From positions 1 to 63,346 of the forward strand of contig JAGOOP010000008.1 of assembly GCA_017992455.1 (NCBI GenBank): a stretch of DNA of 63,346 nt, read 5' to 3'. This DNA is from Candidatus Omnitrophota bacterium (GTDB lineage: Bacteria > Omnitrophota > Gorgyraeia > Gygaellales > Profunditerraquicolaceae). This document shows, in pieces, positions 31,086 to 58,541 of this stretch. Numbering within the stretch: position 1 is the first letter of the stretch; each line of letters begins with the position of its first letter. The translations under genes and the position numbers were made by a program. The notes under the pieces were generated by a model, which was given only the letters and a program-made list of their open reading frames with translations, was not told the origin of the DNA and searched no databases.

Positions 31086-32182
31086 GGACGGACCTGAAGA
31101 TCCCCGGTATCGCGCTGTTGATCTCCATGATGGGTATTGTCACCATCTATAGCAGCACCTATATGAAGGAGGGGGAATTCTGGCAGTCGCTGTACCAGCG
31201 CCAGATCCTGTGGGTCGCATTGGGGCTTGTCGTATACGCGATCTTTTCAAGGATCAACTATCGGCGCATCTGGGACTGGACCTATGCCATCTATGCGCTG
31301 GTGATCATTCTGTTGTTGCTTGTGGTGGGCAGCGGCATCGTCCGGCTCGGCGCACAGCGGTGGCTCAGGATCGCGTGGTTCAATCTGCAGCCTTCCGAAG
31401 TCGCAAAATTCGCCGTGCTTATCTATATGGCCAGGTATTGCAGTAAAAAATCGCCGGATGATGTGGGGCTCAAAGCCCGCCGTTACGGCATCGTCAAAGG
31501 CCTCATTATACCGTTCTTGTTCGTCATCGTGCCGTCCGCGTTCATCATAGAGCAGCCTGACCTGGGAAGCGGCGCCCTTGTTTTCTTCCTGTTTTTCGCG
31601 ATGCTGTATCTGGGCAATGTCAGGCTCAGGTACCTTGCGCTTGTCGCCGGGATACTGATCGCGGTCATGCCTGTTGCGTGGCATTTCCTGCACGATTATC
31701 AGCGTGACCGGATACTCGTTTTCCTGAATCCGAATATCGACCCGCTCGGCGCAGGATATACGATCATCCAATCGAAGATCGCCATCGGTTCGGGCGGATT
31801 TCTGGGAAAGGGATGGCTGGGAGGCACGCAAAGCCAGTTGTTCTTCCTTCCCGAGGCGCATACGGATTTCATATTCGCGACATTCACCGAACAATGGGGG
31901 TTTGTGGGAGGGATTATACTGCTCGCATTGTATTTTCTTTTGATCAAGCAGGGCATCAACGTGGCCGAGCGGACCGGGGACCATTACGGCAGGCTTCTAT
32001 CGCTCGGCATCTCATTGATGCTGGCGATCCAGGTCTGCATCAACATCTCCATGAACATGGGGCTGGCGCCGGTCGTGGGCATACCGCTGCCGCTCATGTC
32101 GTACGGCGGCTCGTCAATGATCATTACCTATATATGCCTTGGCATGATGGCCAACATCAACAGGACGCGCGCGGTTTTCTAA
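31082..32182 (+). CDS. rodA: SEDS-family peptidoglycan glycosyltransferase RodA
   Basis: 'QPSEVAK', 'EQPDLGS', 'HTDFIFA' and 'IPLPLMSYGGSS' are present. Its ATG overlaps the mrdA stop. Confidence 0.85.
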   Translation: MRTDLKIPGIALLISMMGIVTIYSSTYMKEGEFWQSLYQRQILWVALGLVVYAIFSRINYRRIWDWTYAIYALVIILLLLVVGSGIVRLGAQRWLRIAWFNLQPSEVAKFAVLIYMARYCSKKSPDDVGLKARRYGIVKGLIIPFLFVIVPSAFIIEQPDLGSGALVFFLFFAMLYLGNVRLRYLALVAGILIAVMPVAWHFLHDYQRDRILVFLNPNIDPLGAGYTIIQSKIAIGSGGFLGKGWLGGTQSQLFFLPEAHTDFIFATFTEQWGFVGGIILLALYFLLIKQGINVAERTGDHYGRLLSLGISLMLAIQVCINISMNMGLAPVVGIPLPLMSYGGSSMIITYICLGMMANINRTRAVF

Positions 32183-32208
32183 GAGCGATAGCGGCACAGG
32201 GGGGCGTT

Positions 32209-32679
32209 ATGAATATGGAACTGACGGGGATGGAAGATCTTTTTCTGCAATTGAAGAAACGGCTGTCAACGCCGGGGCGCGTTATCAGTATTGACGGAGT
32301 GGCCCAGGCGGGGCAGAAAGCGCTCGCCGATACGCTGGCAGGGCGGTTCGCGTGCCAGCTGATCGAGGTCGATCATACGGCCGATGCCCAGCAACTCATT
32401 GCGGGAGCCGCAGCGGGGCGGAAGAAGGGGCATGTGATCATATCCGGTATCCTCATGCGCCGGATATTGGCTGCCGCAGGGCTGAAGCCGGATATCGCCA
32501 TCTACGTTATACCGTCGGAAAAGAACAGCCGTCGGGCATTCTGGGAAGGCATCCTTTCCAAACCGCAGCAGGAGTATCTGGCGGAGTTGAAGGCAGATCT
32601 CGATAAGAAGACGGTCGAGTATCACTGGAAGCATCATCCGATCATCAACGCGGATTATCTGGTCGAAGGAGATGAGTAG
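32209..32679 (+). CDS. Hypothetical protein with a degenerate P-loop-like N-terminus
   Basis: An internal ATG lies at 32209. 'VISIDGVAQAGQKALADTL' resembles a nucleoside-kinase Walker A but lacks GK[ST]. No other motif was recognised. Confidence 0.4.
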   Translation: MNMELTGMEDLFLQLKKRLSTPGRVISIDGVAQAGQKALADTLAGRFACQLIEVDHTADAQQLIAGAAAGRKKGHVIISGILMRRILAAAGLKPDIAIYVIPSEKNSRRAFWEGILSKPQQEYLAELKADLDKKTVEYHWKHHPIINADYLVEGDE

Positions 32680-32834
32680 TCTGTCGCGGTAGTGTCTCTC
32701 AGGGGCGCTCGTGCGTCCCCGGCGTGGCCGCACTCGCTCGATTTCGTCCCCTCGCTCTTGCCGGTACGTTTGAGCGGGCAATCCGTGCCCGCTCGGGGAC
32801 TCCAACGCCCTTCGATACACTACCGGGACAGACT
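32678..32834. ncRNA. Candidate structured RNA or palindromic element A (about 157 nt, nested helices); identity and strand unknown
   Basis: The 18-nt termini AGTCTGTCGCGGTAGTGT and ACACTACCGGGACAGACT pair with 1 mismatch. Nested complementary pairs GGGGCG/CGCCC and GTCCCC/GGGGAC are present. An internal hairpin GAGCGGGCA-atccg-TGCCCGCTC is present. Confidence 0.35.
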
Positions 32835-32895
32835 GCGATTCTTATTCGAATAAAGGAACCATATGCTTAATGAAGATAGGTTTTTTGGATCGTCG

Positions 32896-33015
32896 CGTTG
32901 ATCCCTGGAGGGTGTGTCACAAAGCGAGTTCCCGCAGAGGCGGGATACTGACGTAATACCTAGTTAACGTCAGGTATCCTGTTCGAGCGACTGACACACC
33001 CTCCAGGGATCAACG
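32896..33015. ncRNA. Candidate structured RNA or MITE-like palindromic element B (120 nt) with perfect 24-bp terminal inverted repeats
   Basis: CGTTGATCCCTGGAGGGTGTGTCA (32896-32919) is perfectly complementary to 32992-33015. Inner hairpins are CCCGC-agag-GCGGG and GATACTGACGT..ACGTCAGGTATC. Confidence 0.4.
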
Positions 33016-33040
33016 AATAATAAAAGAAAGTAGATACCAT

Positions 33041-34810
33041 ATGTTAGATCAAGAAATGCTGTTAGGGGTACGCAAACCGGCGCGCTACATCGGAAGCGAG
33101 TGGAACGCGTCGAAGAAATCCTTTGACGGATCGGCGCTGCGCTTCGCTTTGTGTTTCCCCGATCTGTACGAGATCGGCATGAGCAACCTGGGGGTCAGGA
33201 TACTGTATTCCGTCCTGAACGCGGTCACCGATGTGTGCTGTGAGCGCGTATTCATGCCGGATATCGATATGGCGCAGGCATTGAAAGACAAGCGCATGCC
33301 ATTGATGACGCTTGAGTCTCAGCGGCCGGTGCGGGATTTCGACATTCTGGGGGTTTCGCTCGGCTATGAATTGTCTTATACCAACGTGCTGGCGGCGCTC
33401 GATCTGGCAGGATTGCCGCTTGAGGCGGCGGCGCGCGGCAGGGAATTCCCGCTGGTCGTTGCCGGAGGGCCTGCGGTCCTGAACCCCGAGCCCATGCATG
33501 AATTCTTCGATCTGTTCGTCATCGGCGAAGCCGAGGAAGCGGTCGTCGAGTTGATCGATGCATACCGCGGCCTGAAAAATGCATACCGGTCAGGCGGCAT
33601 AACCAAGCAGGATCTGTTATTCAAGCTGTCCGGTATAGAAGGGGTGTATGTCCCGTCTTTATATGACGTGGAGTATGGCAGCGACGGAACGCTCAGCGTT
33701 TTCTCGCCGGTCCGGCAGGGCGTCCCCGCAACGGTCAAGAAAAGGATATTCGCAGGGTTCGGCAGTTCTTCACTGCCCCGCGAATGGCTTGTTCCCTATA
33801 TTCAGGTCGTTCACGACCGGGTGACGGTCGAGGTGTCCCGCGGTTGTCCGAACCGGTGCCGGTTCTGCCAGGCGCGCAGCTGCTATTTTCCGCTGCGGCA
33901 CCGGCCGGCCCCTCTGGTCCTGGGAGCTGCGCGGGAATATTACCGCCAGACCGGCTACGACGAGGTGTCCTTTTGCGGCTTATCGGTCAGCGATTATCCC
34001 GGCCTGCCCGCGCTCATGGAGCAGATGGTGAATGAATTCAAACCATACGGCGTCAGTGTTTCCCTGCCGTCGGTCAAGCCCAAAACATTTCTCGGAGGCA
34101 TGTCGGGGCTGATCGCGACCGTTAAGAAGACGGGCCTGACATTCGCGCCCGAGGCGGCGACCGCCGGGCTGCGCAGTGTCATCGGAAAGGATTTTGATGA
34201 AGAAGAATTCTTCCGGATGCTCGAAGAAGTTTACCGCGCCGGGTATCAGCATGTCAAACTGTATTTCATGACGGGCCTGCCGCAGGAGACCGAAGCGGAT
34301 GTCGAGGCGATCGCGCAATTTTCCCGCCGCGTTTCGGCAGCGCGCAAGCCGGCGGCGGGATCTGCCGCCGCGGTCAATGTGAGCGTGAACACCGTGATCC
34401 CCAAGCCCCATACGCCGTTCCAGTGGCTCGAAATGGATTCGATCGAGCATATGGAAGAGACACAGAAGTTTTTGGCGTCGAAAATGAGCGGCCGCAAGAT
34501 CAAGGTCGGTTTTCATGACCGGCATATGAACTTTCTCGAGGGCGTTTTTTCGCGCGGCGACCGGCGGTTGAGCGCCGTGGTCAGGCGGGCGTACGAAAAA
34601 GGATGCAGATTCGACGGATGGAGCGAGCATTTCAATTTTTCCGCCTGGACGGACGCGTTCAAGGAGACGGGATGCGATCCGGGCGTGTATGTGCGCCGGC
34701 GCAGTATCGATGAGGTCCTGCCGTGGGATTTTATCGATGTGGGTATTCCCAAGAGCGTCCTTGTGCAGGAGTATCGCGCGATGAACGGGCACGAACGCGA
34801 TATCGTGTAA
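33041..34810 (+). CDS. B12-binding-domain-like / radical SAM protein (family that often follows the rodA/mre region)
   Basis: It has the 'CPNRCRFC' CxxxCxxC cluster motif in 'VSRGCPNRCRFCQA' and an N-terminal Rossmann-like region. Length is 589 aa. Confidence 0.75.
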   Translation: MLDQEMLLGVRKPARYIGSEWNASKKSFDGSALRFALCFPDLYEIGMSNLGVRILYSVLNAVTDVCCERVFMPDIDMAQALKDKRMPLMTLESQRPVRDFDILGVSLGYELSYTNVLAALDLAGLPLEAAARGREFPLVVAGGPAVLNPEPMHEFFDLFVIGEAEEAVVELIDAYRGLKNAYRSGGITKQDLLFKLSGIEGVYVPSLYDVEYGSDGTLSVFSPVRQGVPATVKKRIFAGFGSSSLPREWLVPYIQVVHDRVTVEVSRGCPNRCRFCQARSCYFPLRHRPAPLVLGAAREYYRQTGYDEVSFCGLSVSDYPGLPALMEQMVNEFKPYGVSVSLPSVKPKTFLGGMSGLIATVKKTGLTFAPEAATAGLRSVIGKDFDEEEFFRMLEEVYRAGYQHVKLYFMTGLPQETEADVEAIAQFSRRVSAARKPAAGSAAAVNVSVNTVIPKPHTPFQWLEMDSIEHMEETQKFLASKMSGRKIKVGFHDRHMNFLEGVFSRGDRRLSAVVRRAYEKGCRFDGWSEHFNFSAWTDAFKETGCDPGVYVRRRSIDEVLPWDFIDVGIPKSVLVQEYRAMNGHERDIV

Positions 34811-34892
34811 GTCCGAAGAATGAAAACTATTGCCATGAGGCATCTTACGCGATATAATATTCGCTGCGATACAAAGCAGAGAGGCGAAGAGC

Positions 34893-36275
34893 ATGAAGAA
34901 AAATGACGTCGTTTCCATTTCGTCGAGGGGGCTGGCGTATAAACTGCGCGTCGCTTTTTCCCTCATGTCGGTGCTTCCGCTTTTGGTATCGTTCTACGTG
35001 ATGGGCAATTATCTCGTTCCGAGGACCGGCATGAGGCCCTACGTTATCATATTCCTGGGTATCAGCGCGGTCATCGCGCTCTCGGGGTTCTTTCTTATCA
35101 AGGATGTTTTCGATCGGATGATCAAGGTCACCGGCCAGGTGAAGATGATCGCCGCCGGCGATATGGCCCGCAAGGTCGATGTCAAGCTGAAGGACGAAGT
35201 CGGGGAACTGTCGGACGCCCTGAACCAGATCACTCAGCGGGTGCGCACGAACATGGAAGAACTGCAGGTCTACGGCAAGCAGACCGATGACATGAACACG
35301 CAGATCCAGCGCCGCCTGCATGTCCTGGCGAGCGTTCTGCAGATCACGTCGCTGATATCCCAGCGGGAGAGCCTGGATAAGATACTTCAGATGATCGTGG
35401 AGAAGGCCAAACAGCTGGCGCACTCGGACCTGGCGTATCTTTTGGTCCGTGACGATGCGGCCGGCGCGTTCGTCATGCATAAAGTTTTCGGCGTCGATGC
35501 CGCCGGCCTTCAGGATATGCACGTTCCCGTTCCCGATGCCTTGTTCACCGATATCAGCGTTCAGGACAAAGTGTTCCTGCTCGACGCGGTCAATCAGGCG
35601 AGTGCCGAACAGGCAGCGTTACTCGAGGAGCGTCTGCGGCTGCGCAATACCATGGCGATCGCGGTCCACCTGTCGGGAGAGGTGGTCGGGGTCCTCGGCG
35701 TCGGTAATCGCGCCGAAGGGTTCTCATATACCCAGGACGATCAGGCGTTGTTCGACGTGTTCGCCAAGCAGGCGACGATTGCCATGGGGAATGAAAAGCT
35801 TTTGCGCAAGGTCGAGAAGCTCGAGATCAAAGACGAGCTTACCGGCCTGTACAATCAGACGTATATCCTGAATCATCTGCGGGAAGAGATCAAGCGGGCG
35901 GTCCGCTTCCAGCGCCCCTGCGCCTTCATGATCGTCAGTATCGATCGTTTCGACAAACTGCTCGCTTCGGTCGGAGAGGAGCAGGCGAATGCGATCCTGA
36001 TCAAAATATCGTCACTTATCCGGGATCTCGTGCGAGAGGTCGACCGCGTCGCGCGTTTTGAAAAGAACGGCTTTGCGGTCGTCCTGCCTGAAAAAAACAA
36101 GCGGGAAATGCAGAAGATGGCGGATGAGATAAAAGAGCGGATAGAATCCAATTTCGCCTCAAAGCTCGATCACCGGAAATTACTGACCGTGAGCATCGGA
36201 ACGAGCGAGAACCCGCTCGACGGCGCCAACGCCGAAGAGCTTGTGGCATGCGCGCATAAGATGCTCCATGTCTAA
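34893..36275 (+). CDS. Membrane HAMP-GAF-GGDEF-domain protein with a degenerate active site (EKNGF) and a retained RxxD I-site
   Basis: It has an N-terminal TM region, HAMP 'GDMARKVDVKLKDEVGELSDALNQI', and a GGDEF fold 'DELTGLYNQ..'. 'REVDRVARFEKNGFAVVLPE' occupies the place of RxxD-x5-GGDEF. Confidence 0.7.
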   Translation: MKKNDVVSISSRGLAYKLRVAFSLMSVLPLLVSFYVMGNYLVPRTGMRPYVIIFLGISAVIALSGFFLIKDVFDRMIKVTGQVKMIAAGDMARKVDVKLKDEVGELSDALNQITQRVRTNMEELQVYGKQTDDMNTQIQRRLHVLASVLQITSLISQRESLDKILQMIVEKAKQLAHSDLAYLLVRDDAAGAFVMHKVFGVDAAGLQDMHVPVPDALFTDISVQDKVFLLDAVNQASAEQAALLEERLRLRNTMAIAVHLSGEVVGVLGVGNRAEGFSYTQDDQALFDVFAKQATIAMGNEKLLRKVEKLEIKDELTGLYNQTYILNHLREEIKRAVRFQRPCAFMIVSIDRFDKLLASVGEEQANAILIKISSLIRDLVREVDRVARFEKNGFAVVLPEKNKREMQKMADEIKERIESNFASKLDHRKLLTVSIGTSENPLDGANAEELVACAHKMLHV

Positions 36276-36296
36276 CATGACGGGAAAACATGACCT

Positions 36297-36743
36297 ATGC
36301 CGGTAAAAAAGATCATCAATAAACAATTAGGCGAATTGCTCATCGAACACGGCATCATCAACGCGGACCAGCTCGAGAAAGCCCTCATGGCCCAGAAGGA
36401 AAAAGGCGGGCTCATCGGAGAGCTCCTCGTCGAGCTTGGATTCGCCAAAGAGGAGGATATCGCCCAGGCGATCACGGTGCAATACGGTTTTCCGTATCTG
36501 CCTCTTTCCAGTTATGAGATCAATGCGGAGATCAGCGCGTTGATCCCGGGGCGCGTTGCCAGGCAGTATATGCTTATTCCCATCGACAAGATCGGCAACA
36601 ACCTTACCCTGGCAATGGCGAATCCGCTCAATGCCTCCGCCATCGAGGATGTCGAGCAGGTGACGGGATGCATGGTCCAGGTATTCGTCAGCACCGTCTC
36701 GGACATCAAAAAGGCCATCGAGAAACATTATAAGCTGTCGTAA
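36297..36743 (+). CDS. Stand-alone T2SSE N-terminal (MshEN-like) domain protein
   Basis: 'QLGELLIEHGIINADQLEKALMAQ' and 'LIGELLVELGFAKEEDIAQAITVQ' match the tandem 24-residue MshEN motif. 'IPIDKIGNNLTLAMANPLN' is a typical GspE_N feature. No ATPase domain is present. Confidence 0.7.
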   Translation: MPVKKIINKQLGELLIEHGIINADQLEKALMAQKEKGGLIGELLVELGFAKEEDIAQAITVQYGFPYLPLSSYEINAEISALIPGRVARQYMLIPIDKIGNNLTLAMANPLNASAIEDVEQVTGCMVQVFVSTVSDIKKAIEKHYKLS

Positions 36744-36763
36744 GCCCGTACGAGCAGGAGACA

Positions 36764-38482
36764 ATGGCATCCCTCAAAGACCGTCTTACCGATATCCTCA
36801 TCAAGAACAATCTGATCACCCCCGAACAGCTGAACCAGGCCCTTGAAGAACAGAGGATAAAGGGGGGCAAACTGAGCGATATCATCGTCGCTCTTAAATT
36901 TGTCAGTGAAAGCAATCTGATCTCCGTGCTCTCCCAGAGCATGAATTTCCCTCTCATCGACCTGAAACGGTTCAAGGTCGACACCGAGACCGCCCGGCTT
37001 GTCCCGTCCACCATCGCCCGCCATTATCAGATCATCCCGGTATCGAAGATCGGGGATACGATCACTCTTGCCATGGCCGACCCGCTTAATGTGTTCGCGA
37101 TCGACCATGTCGCGTCCCTCACCGGGTATAAGATCAATCCGATCATCTCGTCGCTTCAGGACATCATGCAGGCGATCGAGACGTCGTACACCGACGTGTC
37201 GAAAGACGCCATCGGCGACCTCGTTAAGGAGATCTCGGCCACTTCGTCCATCGAGCTCATCAAGGAAGAGCGGGAGGCCAACGTTGAAGCCGACATGGGA
37301 ACGCTTTCGACCGACGCTCCGGTCATCAAGATCACCGATCTTATCCTCGACCAGGCGGTGAAAAAGAAATCGTCCGATATCCTCATCGAGCCGTTCGAGA
37401 AGAAATTGCGCGTGCGCTTCCGCGTCGACGGCATTTTGCAGGAAGAACAGTCGCCTCCGAAGCATCTCCATATGTCGATCGTTTCGCGCATCAAGGTCAT
37501 GTCGGAGCTTAATATCGCCGAGCACCGGCTTCCGCAGGACGGCAGGTTCAAAGCGAAGCTCGGAGGCCGCGAGGTCGATTTCCGCGTTTCGGTCCTGCCG
37601 TCGGCGTTCGGGGAAAAGGTCGCGATCCGTATCCTCGACAAATCGCAGGCCATGCTCGATATCCAGAAACTCGGATTCGCCGAAGATACGCTTTCCACGC
37701 TGCGCAAAGTCGCAAAGATGCCCCATGGCATGGTCTTGGTGACCGGCCCGACGGGCTCCGGCAAGACGACGACGCTGTATTCCGTCCTGAAGCTCCTCGA
37801 TTCTCCGGAAAAGAACATCGTGACCGTCGAGGATCCGGTCGAGTACCAGCTTGAAGGCATCAACCAGGTCACGGTCAAGGCCGATGTGGGGCTTACTTTT
37901 GCGAGCGCGCTGCGGTCCATATTGCGCCAGGACCCGAATATCATCATGATCGGCGAGATCCGCGACTTCGAGACCGTCGACATCGCCATAAAAAGCGCGT
38001 TGACCGGCCATCTGGTCCTGTCGACGCTTCATACGACGACCGCCTGCGGTTCGGTCGTGCGGCTCGTCAACATGGGCGTCGAGCCGTTCATGATCAACTC
38101 GTCCGTCCTGTGCATCGTCGCGCAGCGGCTCGTGCGCAAGCTCTGCCCGTATTGTAAGCACGAAGACACGCTCGCCGAAGGCGTGATCAAGAACCTCAAG
38201 ATCGCGGTGCCCCGGGGCCAGAAGGCCGTGTTCTACCGGGGCAAAGGGTGTTCCCGGTGCCTCAACCTGGGGTATTCCGGCCGCGTCGGCATCGCCGAGG
38301 TCCTGCTTTTGACGTCCAGGATCAGGGACCTTATTCTGAACCGGGCCCAGGAACACATCATCAAACAGCATGCGCGCGAAGAAGGGATGCATACCCTGCG
38401 CGAGGACGGTATCCGCGCGGCCCTGGCGGGCCTGACGTCGCTTGAGGAGATCATCCGGGTCACCGCAGCGGATGAAGTATAA
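36764..38482 (+). CDS. PilB/GspE-family secretion/pilus assembly ATPase, copy 1
   Basis: It has an N-terminal GspE_N, Walker A 'GPTGSGKTTT', 'MIGEIRD' and a tetracysteine 'CPYC..CSRC'. Confidence 0.85.
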   Translation: MASLKDRLTDILIKNNLITPEQLNQALEEQRIKGGKLSDIIVALKFVSESNLISVLSQSMNFPLIDLKRFKVDTETARLVPSTIARHYQIIPVSKIGDTITLAMADPLNVFAIDHVASLTGYKINPIISSLQDIMQAIETSYTDVSKDAIGDLVKEISATSSIELIKEEREANVEADMGTLSTDAPVIKITDLILDQAVKKKSSDILIEPFEKKLRVRFRVDGILQEEQSPPKHLHMSIVSRIKVMSELNIAEHRLPQDGRFKAKLGGREVDFRVSVLPSAFGEKVAIRILDKSQAMLDIQKLGFAEDTLSTLRKVAKMPHGMVLVTGPTGSGKTTTLYSVLKLLDSPEKNIVTVEDPVEYQLEGINQVTVKADVGLTFASALRSILRQDPNIIMIGEIRDFETVDIAIKSALTGHLVLSTLHTTTACGSVVRLVNMGVEPFMINSSVLCIVAQRLVRKLCPYCKHEDTLAEGVIKNLKIAVPRGQKAVFYRGKGCSRCLNLGYSGRVGIAEVLLLTSRIRDLILNRAQEHIIKQHAREEGMHTLREDGIRAALAGLTSLEEIIRVTAADEV

Positions 38483-38484
38483 CC

Positions 38485-40197
38485 ATGAAAGCGCTTAAAG
38501 AGAACCTTATAGAGATCCTTCTGCAGAACAAGCTTCTGACGCAGGAGCAGCTCGACCGCGCGGTCAAGATACAGAACGAGCGCCGGATACCCTTGCGCCG
38601 CGTCCTGATCGACGAAAAGATCATCGGGGAGGAGCAGCTGCTTCAGTTCCTCTCGACGCATCTGTATATCCCGTCGCTGCACCTGAGCAAATACAAATTC
38701 GACCCTGAGCTCGTCAAGATCATCCCGGCGCATATGGCCCTCCAGTACACGGTGATCCCCATTTCAAAGATCGCCAACACCCTGACCGTCGCGATGGCCG
38801 ATCCGCTCAATGTTTTTGCGCTCGACGATCTCAAAGTCATCACCGGCTGCGATATCGATATCGTGCTGAGCCCCATCGAGGAAATATCCCGCGCGATCGA
38901 GGCGCATTATGTGGCCGAGTCCAAGGACATGCAGGAATTGATCGACGCGGGGGTCGATACGAAGGAGCAGGGCAAAGAAGACGTCCAGGTGGTCAAGGAC
39001 GAGGATATCGATCTGTCGAGCGCCGTTTCCGAAAGCGAAAAGCCTTCGATCGTGAAACTCGTGGATGTCATGCTCACCGAGGCGCTTAAGAAACGCGCGT
39101 CCGACCTTCACATCGAGCCGGTGATCGACGGCCTGAAGGTGCGGTATCGCGTCGACGGCGCGCTTCATGAGATCATCAAGCTTCCCAAAAAGAACCAGAA
39201 CGCCGTTACGGCGCGCCTCAAGATCATCTCGAACATGAACATTACCGAGAACCGCATCCCGCAGGACGGAAGGTTCAAGGTCAAGTTCGAGGGCAAAGAG
39301 ATCGATTTCCGCGTGTCGAGCCTGCCGACCACGTTCGGCCAGAAATTCGTCCTGCGCGTGCTCGACAAGGGGCAGCTTTCCATCGGCCTCGACAAACTCG
39401 GGTTCTCGCCGGAGCCTGCGCGTATATTCAAGGAGGCGGTTGCCAAGCCGTTCGGCATGATCCTGGTGACCGGGCCGACGGGTTCGGGCAAATCGACGAC
39501 GTTGTATTCTGTCCTCAACCAGCTCAATACCCCCCAGCGAAATATCGTCACGATCGAAGACCCCGTTGAATACCAGCTTGACGGCATCACCCAGATCCCG
39601 GTGCGCCACGATATCGGCCTGGATTTTTCCGCCGGCCTTCGCGCGGTCCTGCGCCAGAGCCCCGACGTCATCATGGTCGGGGAGATCCGCGATTCGGAAA
39701 CGGCGGACATCGCGGTCAAGGCGTCCCTGACAGGGCAATTGTTCCTTTCGACGCTGCATACGAACGACGCGCTCACGAGCATCACGCGTCTGATGGACAT
39801 GGGCGTGGATCCGTTCCTCGTGGCTACGAGCATCGTCATGGTCTGCGCCCAGCGCCTGTGCCGCCGGATGTGCCCCAAGTGCAGGAAACCGGTTACGGTC
39901 CCTGCCGCCTATTTGAAGGAGATCGGTTTTCCGTTCGAAGGCGTGACATTTTATAAGGCCGAAGGCTGTAAATCTTGCAATAATACCGGCATCTATGGTA
40001 GAATAGCAATACTGGAGGCCGTCCTTATTGATGATACGATCCGCGAAATGATCATCAAGAAACAATCGCTTGATTCCATCAGGGAATACGCCGTTACCAA
40101 ATTAGGCATGAAGATGCTGCGGGATGATGCTTTTATTAAGGTCAAGGACGGCATGACCACGCTTGATGAGGCGATACGCATCACGACAGAGGAATGA
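38485..40197 (+). CDS. PilB/GspE-family secretion/pilus assembly ATPase, copy 2
   Basis: It has the same architecture as copy 1: 'GPTGSGKSTT', 'MVGEIRD' and 'CPKC..CKSC'. Confidence 0.85.
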   Translation: MKALKENLIEILLQNKLLTQEQLDRAVKIQNERRIPLRRVLIDEKIIGEEQLLQFLSTHLYIPSLHLSKYKFDPELVKIIPAHMALQYTVIPISKIANTLTVAMADPLNVFALDDLKVITGCDIDIVLSPIEEISRAIEAHYVAESKDMQELIDAGVDTKEQGKEDVQVVKDEDIDLSSAVSESEKPSIVKLVDVMLTEALKKRASDLHIEPVIDGLKVRYRVDGALHEIIKLPKKNQNAVTARLKIISNMNITENRIPQDGRFKVKFEGKEIDFRVSSLPTTFGQKFVLRVLDKGQLSIGLDKLGFSPEPARIFKEAVAKPFGMILVTGPTGSGKSTTLYSVLNQLNTPQRNIVTIEDPVEYQLDGITQIPVRHDIGLDFSAGLRAVLRQSPDVIMVGEIRDSETADIAVKASLTGQLFLSTLHTNDALTSITRLMDMGVDPFLVATSIVMVCAQRLCRRMCPKCRKPVTVPAAYLKEIGFPFEGVTFYKAEGCKSCNNTGIYGRIAILEAVLIDDTIREMIIKKQSLDSIREYAVTKLGMKMLRDDAFIKVKDGMTTLDEAIRITTEE

Positions 40198-40201
40198 CGT
40201 T

Positions 40202-41272
40202 ATGATGCCCGCGAACAGCATATTGCTTTTGATGCATAACGAAGATACCTTGCGGTATTTTCGCGAACAGCTTCTGATCGACGGCGGCTACGCCGTGACG
40301 GCCGAGTCCGATCCCGCTGTTGCGCTGGGGCTGTTCAAACAGAACCCGTTCGACGTTGTTTTGACGGCGAGCGACATCCCCGGCTACGAAGGGGCCAGGA
40401 TCCTGCGGGAGATCAAGGCGGTCGATCCATACTGCGTTGTTCTGTTGTATGCCGAAACGCTCAACTATGAGCTGATGGAAGACGCGGCAGGCCTGGGCAT
40501 ATACGACTTTGTCACCAAGCCGATCAACGCGGAAAAGCTGTTCAATCTTGTACGCAAAGGGATCGAGCTCCACACCCTTCAGATCTCCCATGCCCGCACG
40601 GTCTCGATCCTGAAGGAACAGAACACATCCCTCCAGAAACAGAACATCCTCCTTGCCAAACGCATCGAGGATTCCGCGCGGAACCTGGCCCGTTTATATG
40701 AGGACCTGCGGGTCGTGTACATGCGCACGATCCGCGTCCTGGCGCATGCCATCGATGCCCGCGATCACTATACGCACGATCATTCGGAGAATGTCGCAAA
40801 ATACGCCGTTGCCATCGCCCGGCAGATGAACATGACCGTCAAGGAGATCGAGGTCATCCGCGATGCCTCGGAACTGCACGATCTGGGCAAGATCGGCATC
40901 GAGGACACGATCCTTATGAAGCCCGCCGGGTTGACCCCCGAAGAATGGCAGCTCGTAAAACTGCATCCGCAGATGGGAGCGCAGATCCTGGAACCGCTCA
41001 CTTTTTTGACCGATGTCATCGAGCTCGTGCGCCAGCATCACGAGCATTTCGACGGGTCCGGCTATCCTGCCGGCCGCAAGGGCGACGATATCATGCTGGG
41101 CGCGCGGATCATCCATCTGGCCGATGCATTCGAAGCCATGACCTCCCCGCGCTCATACCGCAAGGTCCCGTTTACCAAAGACGAAGCGATCGCCGAGATA
41201 ACGAGGAATGCGAAAACACAGTTCGATCCCCGTGTCGTCGACGCGTTCATGCAGGTGGCACATAATTTATAG
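40202..41272 (+). CDS. Receiver-like domain fused to an HD-GYP phosphohydrolase (RpfG-type c-di-GMP phosphodiesterase family)
   Basis: 'HDHSENVA', 'HDLGKI' and 'HHEHFDGSGYPAG' are present. The N-terminal CheY-like fold appears to lack the DD pocket and the phospho-acceptor Asp ('VVLTASDIPG'). Confidence 0.75.
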   Translation: MMPANSILLLMHNEDTLRYFREQLLIDGGYAVTAESDPAVALGLFKQNPFDVVLTASDIPGYEGARILREIKAVDPYCVVLLYAETLNYELMEDAAGLGIYDFVTKPINAEKLFNLVRKGIELHTLQISHARTVSILKEQNTSLQKQNILLAKRIEDSARNLARLYEDLRVVYMRTIRVLAHAIDARDHYTHDHSENVAKYAVAIARQMNMTVKEIEVIRDASELHDLGKIGIEDTILMKPAGLTPEEWQLVKLHPQMGAQILEPLTFLTDVIELVRQHHEHFDGSGYPAGRKGDDIMLGARIIHLADAFEAMTSPRSYRKVPFTKDEAIAEITRNAKTQFDPRVVDAFMQVAHNL

Positions 41273-41286
41273 GAGGAGGGATTCCT

Positions 41287-42489
41287 ATGTCAGTCTTTCA
41301 GTATAGCGCAAAGGATATGAACGGCCGGACGGTCGTCGGCGTGGTCGAGGCCCCGGGCGAGAACGAAGCCACCGCGATCCTGCAGAATAAATCGTATATC
41401 GTCCTTTCGCTCAAGCAGGTCAAGGCAAAGGCCCTTGCCGCCTCCGGCCAGAAGATCAAGCTCGACGATCTGGTCGTGTTCTCCCGTCAGCTGGCGACCA
41501 TGATCGACGCGGGCATCCCGCTTGTCCAGGCGTTGAGCATCCTTTCCGAACAGGTCGAGAATAAAGGGTTGAAAGCGGTCGTCCTGACCGTGCGCCAGGA
41601 TATCGAAGCGGGCATGTCCTTCTGCGACGCGCTTGCAAAACATCCCCATGTGTTCTCCGAGCTTTTCATCAACATGTCGCGCGCCGGAGAAGCATCGGGT
41701 ATGCTTGACGAGGTCCTGGACCGGCTTGCCTCGTACCTGGAAAAATCCGCGTCATTGCAGCGCAAGGTCAATTCGAGCCTTGTGTACCCGGCGGTCGTCA
41801 TCTCGATGGCCTTTTTGATCACCGCGGTGCTTCTTATCAAAGTCGTTCCCACGTTCAAGGGGATATTCGATATGCTCGGCGGGCAGCTGCCGCTGCCGAC
41901 GCAGATATTGATCATGATATCCGACGTTGTGAGGAAATATTTCTTTCTTGCGATAGTTGCCATGGGCGCAGTCGGGTATGCGTTCAAATGGTATATATCG
42001 ACGCCGAAGGGCGCGTATAAATTCGACGCGTTCCAGCTCAAGGTACCGGTGCTGGGTACCCTGTTCCAGAAGGTCGCCGTTGCGAAATTCTCCCGCACGT
42101 TCTCGACGCTTGTGCGAAGCGGCGTATCGGTCCTGAACGCGCTCGACATCGTCGGCAAGACATCGGGCAACAAGGTCGTCGAAGAAGCCATTTCGGAATG
42201 CCGCGTGGCGGTGCGCGACGGCGAGCCGATCGCCGTGCCGCTCCAGCGCAGCAAGGTGTTCCCGCCGCTGGTCTGCCGCATGATCGGCGTAGGGGAGCAG
42301 ACCGGACAGCTCGAGAAGATGCTCACCAAGATCGCCGATTTCTATGACGACCAGGTCGATGCCGCGGTCGCGGGCATGACAAGCCTTATCGAGCCGCTCG
42401 TCATCGCGCTGCTGGGCGTCCTCATCGGCGGCATCGTCATCGCCCTGTTTCTGCCGATATTTAAGATAACGGAATTGATAGGCAAGTAG
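41287..42489 (+). CDS. pilC: Type II secretion / type IV pilus platform protein (GspF/PilC family)
   Basis: It has two GspF repeats ('FSRQLATMIDAGIPL', 'FSRTFSTLVRSGVSV') and 3 TM segments. An AGGAGG SD is present. Confidence 0.85.
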   Translation: MSVFQYSAKDMNGRTVVGVVEAPGENEATAILQNKSYIVLSLKQVKAKALAASGQKIKLDDLVVFSRQLATMIDAGIPLVQALSILSEQVENKGLKAVVLTVRQDIEAGMSFCDALAKHPHVFSELFINMSRAGEASGMLDEVLDRLASYLEKSASLQRKVNSSLVYPAVVISMAFLITAVLLIKVVPTFKGIFDMLGGQLPLPTQILIMISDVVRKYFFLAIVAMGAVGYAFKWYISTPKGAYKFDAFQLKVPVLGTLFQKVAVAKFSRTFSTLVRSGVSVLNALDIVGKTSGNKVVEEAISECRVAVRDGEPIAVPLQRSKVFPPLVCRMIGVGEQTGQLEKMLTKIADFYDDQVDAAVAGMTSLIEPLVIALLGVLIGGIVIALFLPIFKITELIGK

Positions 42490-42567
42490 CGCGGGCGTTT
42501 TTCTGCAGGCGCCATAAGTTATGTAATTATTGTTGTTTGTGCTCAGCGATTAAATTAAAAATAGTTG

Positions 42568-42596
42568 TTGACAAATTTCGATGCCAATGGTATAGT
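42568..42596 (+). promoter_or_regulatory. rrn promoter P1 (TTGACA-17 nt-TATAGT) with an A/T-rich UP-like tract
   Basis: TTGACA lies at 42568-42573 and TATAGT at 42591-42596. 'taaattaaaaatag' lies upstream. Confidence 0.6.
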
Positions 42597-42652
42597 TACT
42601 AACCCTCAAGCAATGAGGGCCGCATCACGAAGGTCTTTGAAAAGAATTCCCC

Positions 42653-42680
42653 TTGACAAATTCTGTGCATCAGGTATACT
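42653..42680 (+). promoter_or_regulatory. rrn promoter P2 (TTGACA-16 nt-TATACT)
   Basis: TTGACA lies at 42653-42658 and TATACT at 42675-42680. Confidence 0.55.
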
Positions 42681-42835
42681 TTTAGTCCTGTGACAAGAAT
42701 GAGCGAGAGCGACAAATTCGGATAGTCCGATTTGCCCGAAGCATATGACGCTTTATGTAATATAAATGAAGGCGTCCCGTATGTGTCGGGACGCCTATTA
42801 AATTTCGGTCCTGATCGAAATTCAGGGGAACACCA

Positions 42836-42852
42836 GGTTCTTTGACAATTTA
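42836..42852 (+). promoter_or_regulatory. boxA-like antitermination element in the rrn leader
   Basis: GGTTCTTTGACAATTTA resembles the E. coli rrn boxA TGCTCTTTAACAATTTA. Confidence 0.55.
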
Positions 42853-42864
42853 AATAGCCAAGCC
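42849..42864 (+). other. 5' strand of the 16S processing stem (pairs with 45390-45405)
   Basis: TTTAAATAGCCAAGCC is the perfect reverse complement of GGCTTGGCTATTTAAA at 45390-45405. Together they bracket the 16S gene. Confidence 0.7.
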
Positions 42865-42944
42865 AAGAAAGACCCAAAGTCAATCAATGGGTTGAGAGGT
42901 AACAATAAGTAAACAGAGCCTTTTTCCAAATTTTCCTATATATA

Positions 42945-42988
<44 letters not shown>

Positions 42989-43484
42989 ATTAGGCATGCA
43001 AGTCGAGCGATGCTATTTGTTGAGAGGTTGAAGCCGCAAGGCAGATGCCAATTGACTTTTAGCAGAGCGGCAAACGGGTGAGGAATACGTGAGTAATCTA
43101 CCTCTATGTCGAGAATAACCTCGCGAAAGTGAGGATAATGCTTGATGTGGACAATGCCCCATAAGGGGTGTTATCTAAAGGTACCCGCAAGGATATCGCA
43201 TAGAGATGAGCTCATGCTCTATCAGCTAGTTGGTAGGGTAACGGCCTACCAAGGCGAAGACGGATAGGTGGCCTGAGAGGGTGGTCACCCACAAGGGGAC
43301 TGAGACACTGCCCCTACTCCTACGGGAGGCTGCAGTCGAGAATATTTAGCAATGGACGAAAGTCTGACTATGCGACGCCGCGTGAGGGATGAAGGTTTTC
43401 GGATCGTAAACCTCTTTCGATAGGGAAGAAACTCCCTGTTCGTAAGGACAGGTGCTGACGGTACCTAGAGAAGAAGCCATGGCC

Positions 43485-44402: not shown

Positions 44403-44480
44403 AGCGATGGGAGCCGGGGGTACCTAAAGTACTCTAGCAATAGAGTCCTAAGGTAAAACTGGTGACTGGCGCTAAGTCGT

Positions 44481-45233
44481 GAAGTAAAGTTTGCGACCTT
44501 CCGATGTAAATCGGAATGAGAAATTCGGCTGTATGCTGGAACATCCGTAGTATCTCAAGATACCGAAAGGTGAAAATTCTTGAGTGCGGACAATCAGCAG
44601 GGAAGTCGTAATTGACCCCTCAGAGACTACACGCCGACCTCTTAAGGAGCAAAGCTTGGATAAAATAACCGTTGCTTATCTTCAAGGAACCTTGGGAGAT
44701 TCAACGTATAGCAAATTGCATAAGACGTATAGAATATCTCAGAATAATAGAGAATGGTTGCTTATGCTTAAAAATTTGCTTCAGTCGTTGGAGATCAAAG
44801 GATGGATATATAAAGAAGGCAAATCCAGGGACGTATATGTTCTTGAGACTACCTTCCAATCTTTATCCGGAGATTTTGATCCCTGTTCTCTCGAGACTAC
44901 CGAAGAAAAGCAAGCATATATACGCGGTTATTTTGATGCTGAAGGAGGCACTTCCCGAGTTAATACGGTCAGATTTTATCTGCAGTTCGCAGAGAAAAAT
45001 AAGACACGAATCGAGAAGGTCCGGAATCTCCTGAAAGAATTAGGGATCAATTGCGGGAAAATTCATAATCCCAGCAAGGTAACCGATCCTGATTATTGGA
45101 GATTTTATGTCAGTGCTGATTCCTACGATAAATTCGTTAAAGAAATCGGATCCTGGCATCCTAGAAAGCAGAAGCTTTTATCCAAAAGAGTGAAGATATA
45201 GTCCACGCTCTGTGGCGACACAGGGAGTACGTG
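44481..45233 (+). mobile_element. Group I intron in 16S rRNA (between E. coli-equivalent U1498 and A1499), 753 nt
   Basis: The flanks AAGTCGT|..|AACAAGGTAGCC restore the universal AAGTCGTAACAAGGTA. The 5' exon ends in T and the intron ends in G. IGS GCGAC (44493-44497) pairs with GUCGU via a G.U pair. Core motifs CAGAGACTACACG and GAAGATATAGTCC are present. Confidence 0.85.
44656..45201 (+). CDS. Double-motif LAGLIDADG homing endonuclease encoded in the 16S intron
   Basis: The motifs are 'VAYLQGTLGDST' and 'AYIRGYFDAEGG'. A likely TTG start at 44656 follows an AAGGAG SD (the listed ORF starts at GTG 44584). The TAG stop lies inside the GATATAGTC core motif. Confidence 0.75.
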   Translation: MDKITVAYLQGTLGDSTYSKLHKTYRISQNNREWLLMLKNLLQSLEIKGWIYKEGKSRDVYVLETTFQSLSGDFDPCSLETTEEKQAYIRGYFDAEGGTSRVNTVRFYLQFAEKNKTRIEKVRNLLKELGINCGKIHNPSKVTDPDYWRFYVSADSYDKFVKEIGSWHPRKQKLLSKRVKI

Positions 45234-45281
<48 letters not shown>

Positions 45282-45845: not shown

Positions 45846-47856
45846 AAGAACTACAATTATAACCGAGTGAGTTATCGACTATTGTCAAGCTACTAAGGGT
45901 ATATGCACGGATGACTTGGTTAGGTGAGGCGATGAAGGACGGGGTAAGCACCGATATGCTTCGGGGAGCAGCAAACATGCTTTGATCCGGAGATTTCCGA
46001 ATGGGGCAACCCTGCGCGTAGAAATACGCGTAACTCTGCGATGAATACATAGTCGTAGAGAGCGAACGGGACGAATTGAAACATCTAAGTAAGCCCAGGA
46101 GAAGAAATCGAATGAGAGTCCCCCAGTAGAGGCGATCGAAAAGGGATGAGTCTAAACCGCGCGAAAATTCCGCAAGGAAAATTTGCGCGGGGTTGCGGGA
46201 CCTCGATGTGATAGTCAGAGGGATAGCAGAATTGCCTGGAAAGGCAAGCCAAAGAGAGTGAGAGCCTCGTAAGCGAAATTCTGATGACGTCTAGAGGTAT
46301 CCCAAGTACCACGGGACACGGGAAATCCTGTGGGAATCCAGGCTGACCACAGTCTAAGACTAAATACTACACCTAAACCGATAGTGCACCAGTACCGTGA
46401 GGGAAAGTTGAAAAGAACCCCGGGAGGGGAGTGAAATAGAACCTAAAATCATATACCTACAAAGCAGTGGAAGGGCTATGCCGTTGGCGCAAGCTGACGG
46501 AATGCCTGACCGCGTACCTTTTGCATAATGGTCCGACGAGTTTATGTTGCAAGCGAGTTTAAGTGTTGCGTGAAAGCGTAACATGGAGGCGTAGGGAAAC
46601 CGAGTGCTAACCGCGCGTTTAGCTTGCAATATAAGACCCGAAGCTGAGTGATCTATCCATGGCCAGGGGGAAGTTCCGGGAAACCGGGATGGACGCCCGA
46701 ACCCTCGAGCGTTGAAAAACTCTTGGATGAGCTGTGGATTGGAGCGAAAGACTAAACAAACTCAGAAATTGCTGGTTCTCCCCGAAACAATTCTAGGGTT
46801 CGCCTTTAGAAACTACATCGGAGGGGTAGAGTGCTGAATGGACTACGGGAGTCTACCGACTTGCTGAGTCCAACCAAACTTCGAATACTACGATGACTAT
46901 CTAAGGAGTAAGACGACGGGGGCCAAGCTCCGTCGTCAAAAGGGTAACAGCCCAGACCACCAGCTAAGGTCCCTAATCATAAGCTAAGTTGTAAAGGATG
47001 TGGATCCGCAATAACAGCCAGGATGTTGGCTCAGAGGCAGCCATCATTTAAAGAGTGCGTAACAGCTCACTGGCCGAGCGAGTCTGCGCCTAAGATGACC
47101 GGGGATCAAGCTTATAACCGAAGCTGTGGGTTCGATCTGCCTTCGGGCAGATAGAGCGGTAGGGGAGCATCGTCCAATTGGGTGAAGCTGTACCGTAAGG
47201 AGCAGTGGACATTGGACAAGGGATTATGTCGGAATGAGTAGCGAAAACGTCTGCGAGAAACAGACGCGCCGAAAGTCGAAGGTTTCCTGGGGAAGGTTAA
47301 TCCACCTAGGGTTAGTCGTGCCTAAGCCGAGGCCTTATGGCGTAGGTGATGGATACAAGGTTAATATTCCTTGACTAACTGATTGGCGTTATCACTTGTG
47401 TGTGACACAGGAGGGACGAGTCTGCGAGGTGTTGGATGTCCTCGTTTTTGCATCCGGAAGGATGCGAAGGGACCCTGAGGTTTCCGAGGGGGAAGTGAAT
47501 CGATTCCACACTGTCCAGAAAAACCACATGAGGAGTCAATCGGTTACACGTACCGGAATCCGACACAGGTAGACCACCAGAATATGGTAAGGCGATCGAG
47601 ATAACCCTCTTTAAGGAACTCTGCAATCTAGCCGCGTAAGTTCGCAATAAGCGGTGCCCTGCCCCGTAAGGGGATGGGGTCTCAGTAAAGTGGATCGGGT
47701 GACTGTTTAGCAAAAACACATCTCTCTGCAAACTCGTAAGAGGACGTATAGGGAGTGACACCTGCCCAGTGCTGGAAGGTTAAGGGAATTCGTCAGTTGG
47801 GAGCAATCCTTTCGAAGCGATGAACCGAAGCCCCAGTAAACGGCGGCCGTAACTAT

Positions 47857-48532
47857 AGGCTGGACCAAATGTAGTTGTAAAATCTGGCTATATGCTGGAA
47901 AATCCCGTTAAGCTGATGGTACATCCCGAATATTATCGGGATCGTGACAATCTGTCAGATAGGGATTATCAGCAGGAAAGACCTGAAGGAGGTCTCCATG
48001 AAAGCTGAAATCGGCTATTATCTTGCCGGTTTTGCCGACGGAGAAGGGAGCTTTAACGTGTCCTTTCGCCCAAGGCAAGACTACAAATCACCATGGAAAG
48101 TTTCTTTGTGTTTCAATATCTCTCAGAAAGATAAAGTTATTCTTGCTTTATACAAACGCTATTTGGGCTGCGGCACACTTCGCGGCAGGCCTGACGGTGT
48201 TTGGTATTTCGAAGTGAATAATCTAAATGCAATCAGGGAGATAGTAATACCTTTCTTCAAAAGATATCCGTTCCTATCAGCGAAGAAAAAACGCGATTTC
48301 GCGAAATTCTGCGAACTTGCCAAGTTGATCACGAACGAAAATCATCTGACAGAAGAAGGTATAAAGAAAATACTTGAGATACGAAGAGACATGAATGATG
48401 GTGGTAAACGAAAATACAGCGAAATGGAGATACTCAGTAAGCTGAAGGAATCCTCAGAGACTATACGCCAGACTCCTCAAACAGGAGATGATATAGTCCG
48501 GTCTTCCGAGGAATCGGAAGTTAACATACACG
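47857..48532 (+). mobile_element. Group I intron, 23S site about L1917 (helix 69 loop), 676 nt
   Basis: GTAACTAT|..|AACGGTCC restores GUAACUAUAACGGUCC. IGS GTAGTT (47871-47876) pairs with AACUAU. The intron ends in G. Core motifs CAGAGACTATACG and GATGATATAGTCC are present. Confidence 0.85.
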
Positions 48533-48543: not shown

Positions 48544-48546
48544 GGT
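48533..48546 (+). other. 14-nt 23S micro-exon (AACGGTCCTAAGGT, about E. coli 1918-1931) between two introns
   Basis: It is the only rRNA-matching sequence between intron 1 and intron 2. Confidence 0.8.
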
Positions 48547-49723: not shown

Positions 49724-49791
49724 CGATGTCGGCTCATCCTATCCTGGGGCTGGATAAGGTCCCAAGGGTCCGGCTGTTCGCCGGTTAAAAG

Positions 49792-58540: not shown

Positions 58541-58541
58541 G

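Follow-up and report, generated by a model that had tools for sequence, protein, structure and literature searches.

A type IVa pilus motor operon with tandem PilB ATPases and a free-standing MshEN protein as candidate c-di-GMP receptor in Candidatus Omnitrophota

Introduction

The closest described case of two PilB-family extension ATPases in one pilus system is that of Acinetobacter baylyi, in which PilB and TfpB both extend one type IVa pilus (PMC8213720; review PMC11656802). A 2024 review named the role of multiple PilB homologs and the formation of hetero-oligomers as an open question (PMC11656802). In Vibrio cholerae, MshE is a cyclic di-GMP (c-di-GMP)-activated extension ATPase of the mannose-sensitive haemagglutinin pilus (PMC5013675; 5HTL), and c-di-GMP is bound by two of the three GSPII/MshEN domains at the N-terminus of PilF from Thermus thermophilus (PMC11731258, PMC12002112). 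Here we describe a six-gene module (g1 to g6) at positions 34893-42489 of a 63,346-nucleotide (nt) stretch of DNA, referred to as the window, from a Candidatus Omnitrophota bacterium (assembly GCA_017992455.1, contig JAGOOP010000008.1, positions 1 to 63,346, forward strand). The module comprises a HAMP-GAF protein with a degenerate GGDEF domain (g1), a stand-alone MshEN protein (g2), two PilB-type ATPases (g3, PilB1; g4, PilB2), a pseudo-receiver HD-GYP protein (g5) and a PilC-type platform protein (g6). It had been read, in an earlier note made from the sequence alone, as a putative c-di-GMP-gated pilus or secretion motor. As the best explanation of the whole we consider it likely that the operon encodes the motor and platform of a type IVa pilus with two PilBs, and that c-di-GMP input reaches it mainly via g2.

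Omnitrophota are abundant, uncultured and mostly ultra-small bacteria. A predatory or parasitic life is assumed for many of them, and their contact with hosts has been proposed to involve traits such as type IVa pili (PMC10066038). Type IVa pilus loci were reported in nearly all Omnitrophota, and the source data of that study list the KEGG orthology entries pilD, pilM, pilO and pilT beside pilB and pilC (PMC10066038). The arrangement of tandem PilB genes with a free MshEN gene was not mentioned in the Omnitrophota literature that we searched.

The type IVa pilus systems of Geobacter and Myxococcus (pilB-pilT-pilC; PilB 5TSG and 5ZFR, model 3JC8) resemble the module in the MshEN-type N-domain, the zinc tetracysteine and the Walker, Asp and His boxes of the ATPases as well as in a PilC with two T2SSF domains, and they provide its best sequence matches in the PDB. 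However, these organisms have one PilB, whereas Omnitrophota have two in tandem together with a free-standing MshEN protein; moreover, in the window's class PilT and the structural genes are separated from the motor block and an rrn operon follows PilC. Unlike in A. baylyi, the ATPase genes of Omnitrophota are adjacent, translationally coupled and fixed across the phylum. Neither of them encodes TfpB, an identity that was rejected as both proteins reached 464 bits with NF053534, whose cut-off is 850. As in Thermus PilF there is more than one MshEN-type domain per motor, but the additional MshEN of Omnitrophota is a protein of its own whose gene directly precedes those of the ATPases, and some Omnitrophota duplicate the MshEN N-subdomain or add a second free MshEN gene. 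The sensor of V. cholerae MshE lies within the ATPase, whereas the motifs of the Omnitrophota ATPases are degenerate at the glycines and the intact one is found on a separate protein. Separate c-di-GMP-related proteins acting on the PilB N-domain are likewise known from the FimX/PilZ adaptors of Pseudomonas and Xanthomonas, and FimX systems also involve a degenerate GGDEF protein in pilus control (PMC5595344, PMC8389850). Nevertheless, FimX (REC-PAS-GGDEF-EAL, the last two domains degenerate) and the PilZ-fold protein PilZ have no sequence relationship to the module, in which the adaptor candidate g2 is an MshEN domain and the protein with the degenerate GGDEF is of the membrane HAMP-GAF type. 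Finally, g5 is similar to RpfG-type REC-HD-GYP regulators, with REC followed by an HD-GYP domain that has all metal-binding and GYP residues, but its receiver is without the phospho-acceptor Asp and without a phosphorylation switch.

Results

The earlier note had regarded the powered machine as undefined, and within the 63 kb window no pilin, PilMNOPQ, PilT or secretin is encoded, the rrn operon following g6. The machine can be named from divergent relatives, which were obtained by an exhaustive representative search with g3 and subsequent inspection of the contigs. In one of these loci (L088) the genes run rodA, an open reading frame (ORF) of 90 amino acids (aa), a PilT-type ATPase (358 aa), MshEN (164), PilB1 (576), PilB2 (567) and PilC (404), after which come a prepilin with the cleavage motif G/FTLVE (slash, cleavage site), PilM, PilN, PilO, a 164-aa ORF and a secretin. 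The same order was found in L087, with a HAMP-pseudoGGDEF gene added ahead of PilT. L089 reads pseudoGGDEF, PilT, MshEN, PilB1, PilB2 and PilC, and L085 has pilins and PilMNO downstream of PilC. The first ATPase of the divergent loci matched g3 best (51-57% identity) and the second g4 (49-52%). Close homologs of the L087 protein P0150 carry the names Omnitrophica or Omnitrophota, and on the basis of the names of close homologs the divergent loci, which represent other classes, belong to Omnitrophota. Since the same MshEN-PilB1-PilB2-PilC block adjoins PilT, prepilin, PilMNO and secretin genes in sister classes, the module is a type IVa pilus extension motor (g3, g4) with its inner-membrane platform (g6). 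A small ORF of conserved position (90-120 aa, no Pfam hit) was observed before the pseudoGGDEF or PilT gene in the class with the complete cluster (L087 4884-5246, L088 6455-6727, L089 5040-5315).

All domain assignments of the earlier note, MshEN and HD-GYP included, were recovered by Pfam search. With the PilB model TIGR02538 g3 scored 646.1 bits and g4 628.4 bits, compared with 616 and 572 bits for GspE. The platform protein g6 matched PF00482 in two stretches (224 bits), and the PilC models (432 and 420 bits) exceeded GspF (389). The best PDB match was Geobacter PilB for g3 (570 bits) and g4 (542 bits), and Myxococcus PilC for g6 (346 bits); Myxococcus PilB was also among the best solved relatives of the ATPases.

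As had been proposed, g3 and g4 are paralogous full-length ATPases with their own MshEN-like N-termini (PF05157, 67 bits each; T2SSE, PF00437, 472 and 429 bits), and they are 42% identical to each other. The Walker A and B motifs, the Asp box and the His box are 95-100% conserved in 71 g3 and 59 g4 orthologs, and the zinc tetracysteine CxxC...CxxC is conserved in all of them. Because the catalytic motifs are maintained to this degree, neither protein appears to be a pseudo-enzyme, and both are predicted to be catalytically intact. Orthologs of g4 always matched g4 best and not g3. In a neighbour-joining tree of the ATPase cores, which is distance-based, carries no support values and was used only for the coarse sisterhood of g3 and g4 and the separateness of the fusions described below, the g3 and g4 clades fall next to each other as sister groups within the PilB radiation. 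This implies one duplication that would predate the sampled Omnitrophota classes. The two genes, almost contiguous in the window, overlap by gene-call coordinates in other classes, and the pair was unsplit in about 85 loci.

The top matches of the representative search also included MshEN-ATPase-ATPase proteins of about 1000 aa from Patescibacteria in which both Walker A motifs are present; named members belong to Paceibacterota and Parcubacteria. The N-halves and C-halves of these proteins mostly group apart from g3 and g4 in the tree, and therefore the Patescibacteria duplication is probably independent of that of g3 and g4. Most N-halves and C-halves form separate clades. Two of the proteins, P0132 and P0136, look like recent internal duplications. 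No description of fused or tandem PilB ATPases of Patescibacteria was found in our literature search.

The published MshEN motif consists of two copies of RLGxx(LVI)(LVI)xxG(LVI)(LVI)xxxxLxxxLxxQ (PMC5013675). Its first position was later widened to R/K/L, as GSPII-B of PilF has K167 and L196 there and its K167L mutant binds with a dissociation constant of 2 nM (PMC11731258). The extended consensus used here comprises two tandem 24-residue motifs (R/K/L)LGxx(LVI)(LVI)xxG(LVI)(LVI)xxxxLxxxLxxQ with a 5-residue spacer. Neither the strict nor the relaxed regular expression matched g2, g3 or g4, and one g2 ortholog matched; position-wise profiles from about 75 orthologs per protein were used in place of regular expressions (motif rows in Table 1). 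According to these profiles g2 retains every motif G and Q. Its motif I deviates at position 1 only (Q), and in motif II the first position is L, which the extended consensus permits, three L positions are occupied by I, and the second hydrophobic pair reads FA. In g3, by contrast with g2, the motif G positions hold T, K, S and K and the terminal Q position holds G or S, and in g4 they hold I, K and R. The RLG glycine is thus lost in both motifs of all orthologs (T/S in g3, I/R in g4), and the second motif glycine is lost as well except in motif II of g4. The substitutions G11V and G40L of XpsE, which does not bind, fall at the same positions as these losses. With NF053729, the model of the c-di-GMP motif (cut-off 38), g2 scored 62, g3 61 and g4 38.5 bits.

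The AlphaFold2 model of g2 (predicted local distance difference test score 86) has the two-subdomain MshEN fold, an N-terminal four-helix bundle and an alpha/beta C-subdomain. Among PDB structures the model is closest to 5HTL, MshEN with bound c-di-GMP (template modelling scores 0.78/0.83, root-mean-square deviation 2.2 A, 136 columns), and the fold also resembles GSPII-A and GSPII-B of PilF. Compared with V. cholerae MshEN, g2 shares the domain and the predicted fold and retains most positions that contact the ligand, but Gln and Leu stand in place of the first-position Arg, the Leu as in L196 of GSPII-B. The free MshEN of another Omnitrophota class has RIG in motif I. The earlier note had expected three MshEN c-di-GMP receptors. 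Since the motif glycines and glutamines are kept in g2 only, which also shows the fold match, g2 is a credible and the best candidate receptor of the module, whereas this role is doubtful for g3 and unlikely for g4.

Different genes occupy the slot between PilB2 and PilC in different lineages: a pseudo-receiver HD-GYP gene in the window, a second MshEN in L085, none in L087-L089, and in L086 a second MshEN together with a protein that joins a GGDEF domain (signature AGDEF, RxxD present) to a STAND ATPase and HEAT repeats. Because different c-di-GMP parts were recruited to the same slot repeatedly and independently, this argues for a real link between the motor and c-di-GMP, which we regard as plausible. 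The GGDEF-STAND ATPase-HEAT protein of L086 has 1388 aa and lies, followed by the second free MshEN, at 11724-16360; the second free MshEN of L085 (11887-12339) has a canonical RLG motif. Some Omnitrophota (P0065, P0009, P0042 and similar) have a free MshEN of about 215 aa in which the four-helix subdomain with the c-di-GMP motif is duplicated in tandem before a single C-subdomain.

The first gene, g1, encodes two N-terminal hydrophobic helices connected by a loop of about 6 residues. A degenerate GGDEF domain with an intact RxxD I-site had been claimed for it, and this holds for the window, where the signature reads EKNGF and REVD lies five residues upstream. The signatures of the orthologs are GDDEF, GDNEF, GGNEF, DDNEF, NGNEI, NTNEL and GYSDF. 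In the window and in the orthologs g1 lacks the active-site signature GG(D/E)EF, and it is predicted to be a pseudo-cyclase across the phylum. The I-site did not prove to be a conserved trait. Its Arg was found in 3 of 73 aligned sequences (the window and 2 of 72 orthologs); T or S takes its place in 66, and the orthologs mostly read T/S-E-I/V-D. Outside the window's class the position is Arg in L086 and T in L087 and L089. As the Arg is this rare, the I-site cannot be the conserved function of g1, and its intact form in the window appears to be a local feature. A role of g1 as an I-site c-di-GMP receptor of the PelD/PopA type was rejected on the same ground, RxxD being unconserved in the family.

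The g5 protein matched Response_reg (PF00072, 52.6 bits) and HD_5 (PF13487, 122.7 bits), and the description as a pseudo-receiver HD-GYP protein stood. Its motifs HDxGK (HDLGK) and HHExxDGxGYP are 96-100% conserved in 50 orthologs, and with all HD-GYP motif residues kept g5 is a predicted c-di-GMP phosphodiesterase. Some HD-GYP proteins favour other dinucleotides. At the phospho-acceptor position the receiver of the window has A, as do 3 of the 50 orthologs, and 35 of them carry K or R. At the acidic pair the window reads HN; Y, L or F stands at the T87 position, and 31 of 50 orthologs retain K109. The receiver is therefore best described as a putative pseudo-receiver that retains the fold and would not be phosphorylatable, since the phospho-acceptor Asp (CheY D57) is missing while the PF00072 match is retained.

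The ORF list of the window contains six plus-strand ORFs at 34893-42489 (Table 1), in agreement with the co-directional, tightly spaced genes of the earlier note. The mechanical g5 ORF starts with TTG at 40163 inside g4; orthologs are 356 aa long, and hence ATG 40202 was taken as the start. With this start the intergenic gaps from g1 to g6 are 21, 20, 2, 4 and 14 nt. The sigma-70-like promoter candidate sits in the 82-nt gap between a radical SAM gene and g1, no strong internal terminator or promoter signal was found within the six-gene module, and the two rrn promoter-like sites mark its downstream limit. We placed contigs of four activated-sludge metatranscriptomes on positions 33000-43000 at a minimum of 95% identity. 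They begin at 34893 and cover parts of all six genes, with no contig over the radical SAM gene (33000-34669). Single transcript contigs bridge three of the five gene junctions, namely g3/g4 (38284-38520), g4/g5 (40080-40689) and g5/g6 (41160-41512 and 41176-41674), which supports shared transcription. The gaps of 2-21 nt, the single promoter-like site before g1, the lack of a strong internal terminator and the junction-spanning contigs together indicate that g1 to g6 form one operon. At Rfam gathering thresholds neither a riboswitch nor a leader RNA was detected near the module.

Table 1. Coordinates of the module and flanking signals in the window, MshEN motif profiles, and fused ATPases found elsewhere
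Feature	Position	Strand	Description	MshEN motif I	MshEN motif II
g1	34893..36275	+	460 aa; HAMP 77-118, GAF 160-298, GGDEF 313-458 (Pfam)		
g2	36297..36743	+	148 aa; MshEN only (PF05157, 69 bits); profile of 77 orthologs	QLG..G..L..L..Q	LIG..G..I..L..Q
g3 (PilB1)	36764..38482	+	572 aa; MshEN and T2SSE	RLT..K..L..L..Q	(R/K)LS..K..L..L..G
g4 (PilB2)	38485..40197	+	570 aa; MshEN and T2SSE	NII..K..L..L..Q	PLR..G..L..L..Q
g5	40202..41272	+	356 aa; Response_reg and HD_5 (HD-GYP)		
g6 (PilC-type platform protein)	41287..42489	+	400 aa; two T2SSF domains		
Sigma-70-like promoter candidate	34830..34858	+	TTGCCA, 17 nt, TATAAT; 11/12 consensus positions		
Two strong rrn promoter-like sites	42568..42680	+	TTGACA-17-TATAGT and TTGACA-16-TATACT; each 11/12		
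Fused double ATPases of Patescibacteria	outside window		P0121, P0123, P0126, P0128, P0130, P0132, P0134-P0136		

A scan with one genome per species revealed at least 545 loci that encode a relative. Homologs of g2 with 75-93% identity in the protein search were all from Candidatus Omnitrophota metagenome-assembled genomes, and protein search and genome scan together gave close Omnitrophota orthologs only (69-95% identity). Synteny was counted in 81 non-duplicate loci, fetched by their similarity to g2. The expected conservation of the cluster was borne out, as the order aroA, mreB, mreC, (mreD), pbp2, rodA, radical SAM gene, g1-g6 and 16S is shared by about 80 species-level genomes, and a 16S gene lies at most 2 kb past g6 in 29 of 30 relatives. 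This gene arrangement is far beyond chance. Fifty loci reach from g2 to g6; g5 is present in 46 of these, and g1 in 45 of 47 loci of the window's clade. Based on these counts, g2-g3-g4-g6 form the core and g1 and g5 are accessory. Median identity to the window was 73% for g2 (a value biased upward by the choice of loci by similarity to g2), 69% for g3, 67% for g4 and 68% for g6, compared with 83% for MreB, 61% for RodA, 53% for PBP2, 57% for g5 and 45% for g1. The core is thus conserved more than the adjoining cell-wall enzymes RodA and PBP2.

Discussion

Every part of the module comes from a known family, and two extension motors per pilus have a precedent. What is new is the fixed, phylum-wide pairing of two adjacent PilB paralogs with a detached MshEN protein, together with decayed sensor motifs in the ATPases themselves and lineage-specific c-di-GMP accessories. 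We propose that the two ATPases, PilB1 and PilB2, share one PilC platform, on which they may assemble into a mixed hexamer or may serve one after the other, for instance in priming and then in processive extension; joint action is suggested because their genes are translationally coupled and never separated. The input of c-di-GMP would come mainly through g2, the keeper of the motif that both ATPases have lost, and g2 may attach to the motor and serve it in trans as a further N-domain, comparable to the additional GSPII domains of Thermus PilF or to the FimX/PilZ adaptors of PilB. By lowering c-di-GMP locally, g5 could reset the motor. For g1, a membrane-anchored HAMP-GAF sensor, the most likely role would be that of a signal-dependent scaffold or partner, rather than that of a cyclase or a conserved I-site receptor, and it may link a membrane or GAF-sensed signal to the complex.

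Several observations weigh against this reading. Both ATPases remain under the equivalog cut-off of TIGR02538 (675.65 bits), although PilB is still the top model for both, and g6 is under the cut-offs of all PilC and GspF models. In the window's class the positions of the pilin and PilMNOPQ genes, and of a possible extra PilB/PilC pair, were not seen. In this class g2 is without Arg or Lys at the first position of both half-motifs, and motif I has Gln there. By sequence, moreover, the closest solved relative of g2 is Thermus PilF GSPII-A, which does not bind c-di-GMP despite one nearly perfect motif (PMC12002112). The metatranscriptome contigs can contain DNA, so that they support a single transcript and do not prove it. 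No diguanylate cyclase is encoded in the module, only a predicted phosphodiesterase, and the c-di-GMP sensing and turnover circuit of the earlier note was therefore overstated; the connection to c-di-GMP as such stays plausible given the varied c-di-GMP parts in the PilB2-PilC slot. Four loci lack g5 and two lack g1. As g5 is missing in these loci and also in classes with a full contiguous cluster, c-di-GMP turnover is not essential to the motor.

These points bear on several other explanations. The motor could be real and independent of c-di-GMP, with g2 serving only as a structural N1D-like adaptor that connects the ATPases to PilM or PilC, and with g5 acting on another nucleotide such as 3'3'-cyclic GMP-AMP or on the global pool. 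That no MshEN region fits the strict or relaxed published motif, that the nearest solved relative of g2 is a non-binder, that the GGDEF domain of g1 is dead and its I-site unconserved, and that the contiguous clusters L087-L089 are without an HD-GYP gene would all be expected from such a motor. However, g2 keeps all ligand-contacting Gly, Leu/Ile and Gln residues and deviates only in the first residue of the half-motifs, where Leu gives nanomolar affinity in PilF GSPII-B and where another class has Arg. It also scores well above the NF053729 cut-off, its predicted fold is nearest to ligand-bound MshEN, and GGDEF, HD-GYP and extra MshEN genes recur at the locus in independent lineages; we hold this independence to be unlikely. 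Slightly less improbable, if still doubtful in our view, is that the two ATPases do not act jointly, so that PilB2 stands in for the retraction motor or the two ATPases power separate filaments (for instance the major pilus and a secretion pseudopilus) on a shared PilC. The window's locus is indeed without PilT, g3 and g4 are only 42% identical with the largest differences in their N-domains, and the two extension motors of A. baylyi have distinct roles (PMC8213720; PMC11656802). On the other hand, the PilT-type ATPase directly upstream of the pair in sister classes means that a retraction motor coexists with it, both proteins are full-length and PilB-type with N-domain and zinc site, a single PilC stands alongside a pair that stays unsplit, and the Patescibacteria fusions are evidence that a pair of such domains can function within a single chain.

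Far less probable is that the module drives type II secretion instead of a pilus, for example the export of giant Omnitrophota proteins, whose loci are reportedly flanked by type II secretion and type IV pilus genes (preprint 10.64898/2026.06.07.730766, in which 176 complete Omnitrophota genomes are reported). The GspE and GspF scores are also high, but those of GspE stay below the equivalog cut-off of 630.25 bits, PilB and PilC models outscore GspE and GspF, and the solved relatives rank alike. The type II assignment was rejected on the GspE scores and on the contiguous relatives, which carry PilT, PilM, PilN, PilO and a type IVa prepilin and have no GspC, GspL or GspM. A merely accidental or artefactual adjacency of six functionally unlinked genes has a negligible probability, as the same order occurs in about 80 independent assemblies, 54-92% of sampled words were found in 20 independent DNA runs, and transcript contigs cross the gene junctions.

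With regard to its meaning, the pilus motor of Omnitrophota has a fixed and unusual make-up of two PilB paralogs and a free MshEN protein, and g2 offers a concrete candidate route by which c-di-GMP may reach a pilus motor whose own sensor motifs have decayed. Since the pair is never separated, Omnitrophota are a natural test system for the question of PilB hetero-oligomers, and the fused double ATPases of Patescibacteria are a second one. Going further, one might speculate that Omnitrophota pili depend on an obligate PilB1/PilB2 mixed hexamer on one PilC, that c-di-GMP sensing was passed to the free MshEN, and that this converges with the Patescibacteria fusion, maybe as an adaptation that has arisen repeatedly in ultra-small bacteria whose contact with hosts relies on pili; we put this forward tentatively and think it rather improbable as a whole.

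Further features of the window

The genes upstream of the module are all co-directional housekeeping genes. They include the dcw cluster from mraW to ftsA, ileS, lspA, rluD and aroA and, nearer to the module, mreB, mreC, pbp2, rodA and a B12-type radical SAM gene. The dcw cluster (16344-18422, mraW to ftsQ and ftsA) is without ftsZ after ftsA, where genes for a YggS-like pyridoxal phosphate protein, proC and a phosphorylase follow, and no FtsZ was seen among the annotated ORFs of the window. Between rodA and the radical SAM gene lies a gap of 860 nt (32183-33040) that holds an ORF without Pfam match (32179-32679 tested); in most relatives this spacing is below 150 nt.

Downstream of g6 the 16S gene begins at 42942. 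Close to its 3' end (region 44471-45276) it is interrupted by an intron of group I, about 760 nt long, with a LAGLIDADG ORF (44584-45201), and the conserved 16S stretch AAGTCGT/AACAAGG is broken at the slash, at about 44480. The true 3' end, GATCACCTCCTT, is found at 45265-45276, and the Rfam small-subunit end at 44501 is hence not the real end of the 16S gene. The 16S match of a related locus, L072, is split too. Similarly, the 23S gene is interrupted (45883-51247), with a LAGLIDADG ORF at 47944-48543 and group I hits at 48236-48732. Past its nominal end at 49380 there are group I-like hits (49426-49716 and 50332-50516), a short large-subunit fragment (49741-49789) and a third LAGLIDADG ORF (49943-50485), and the 5S gene comes only at 51131; the real 3' end of the 23S gene probably lies beyond 49380.

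Beyond the rrn operon, at 51436-63346, the G+C content falls from about 0.57 to 0.45-0.52, and the gene content resembles that of an integrated element. This putative element encodes a 1313-aa protein with weak TPR hits, a large serine recombinase on the minus strand (55224-57059), a protein with a sigma-70 region 2 fragment, a helix-turn-helix protein and a ParB-N domain fused to a DNA methylase.

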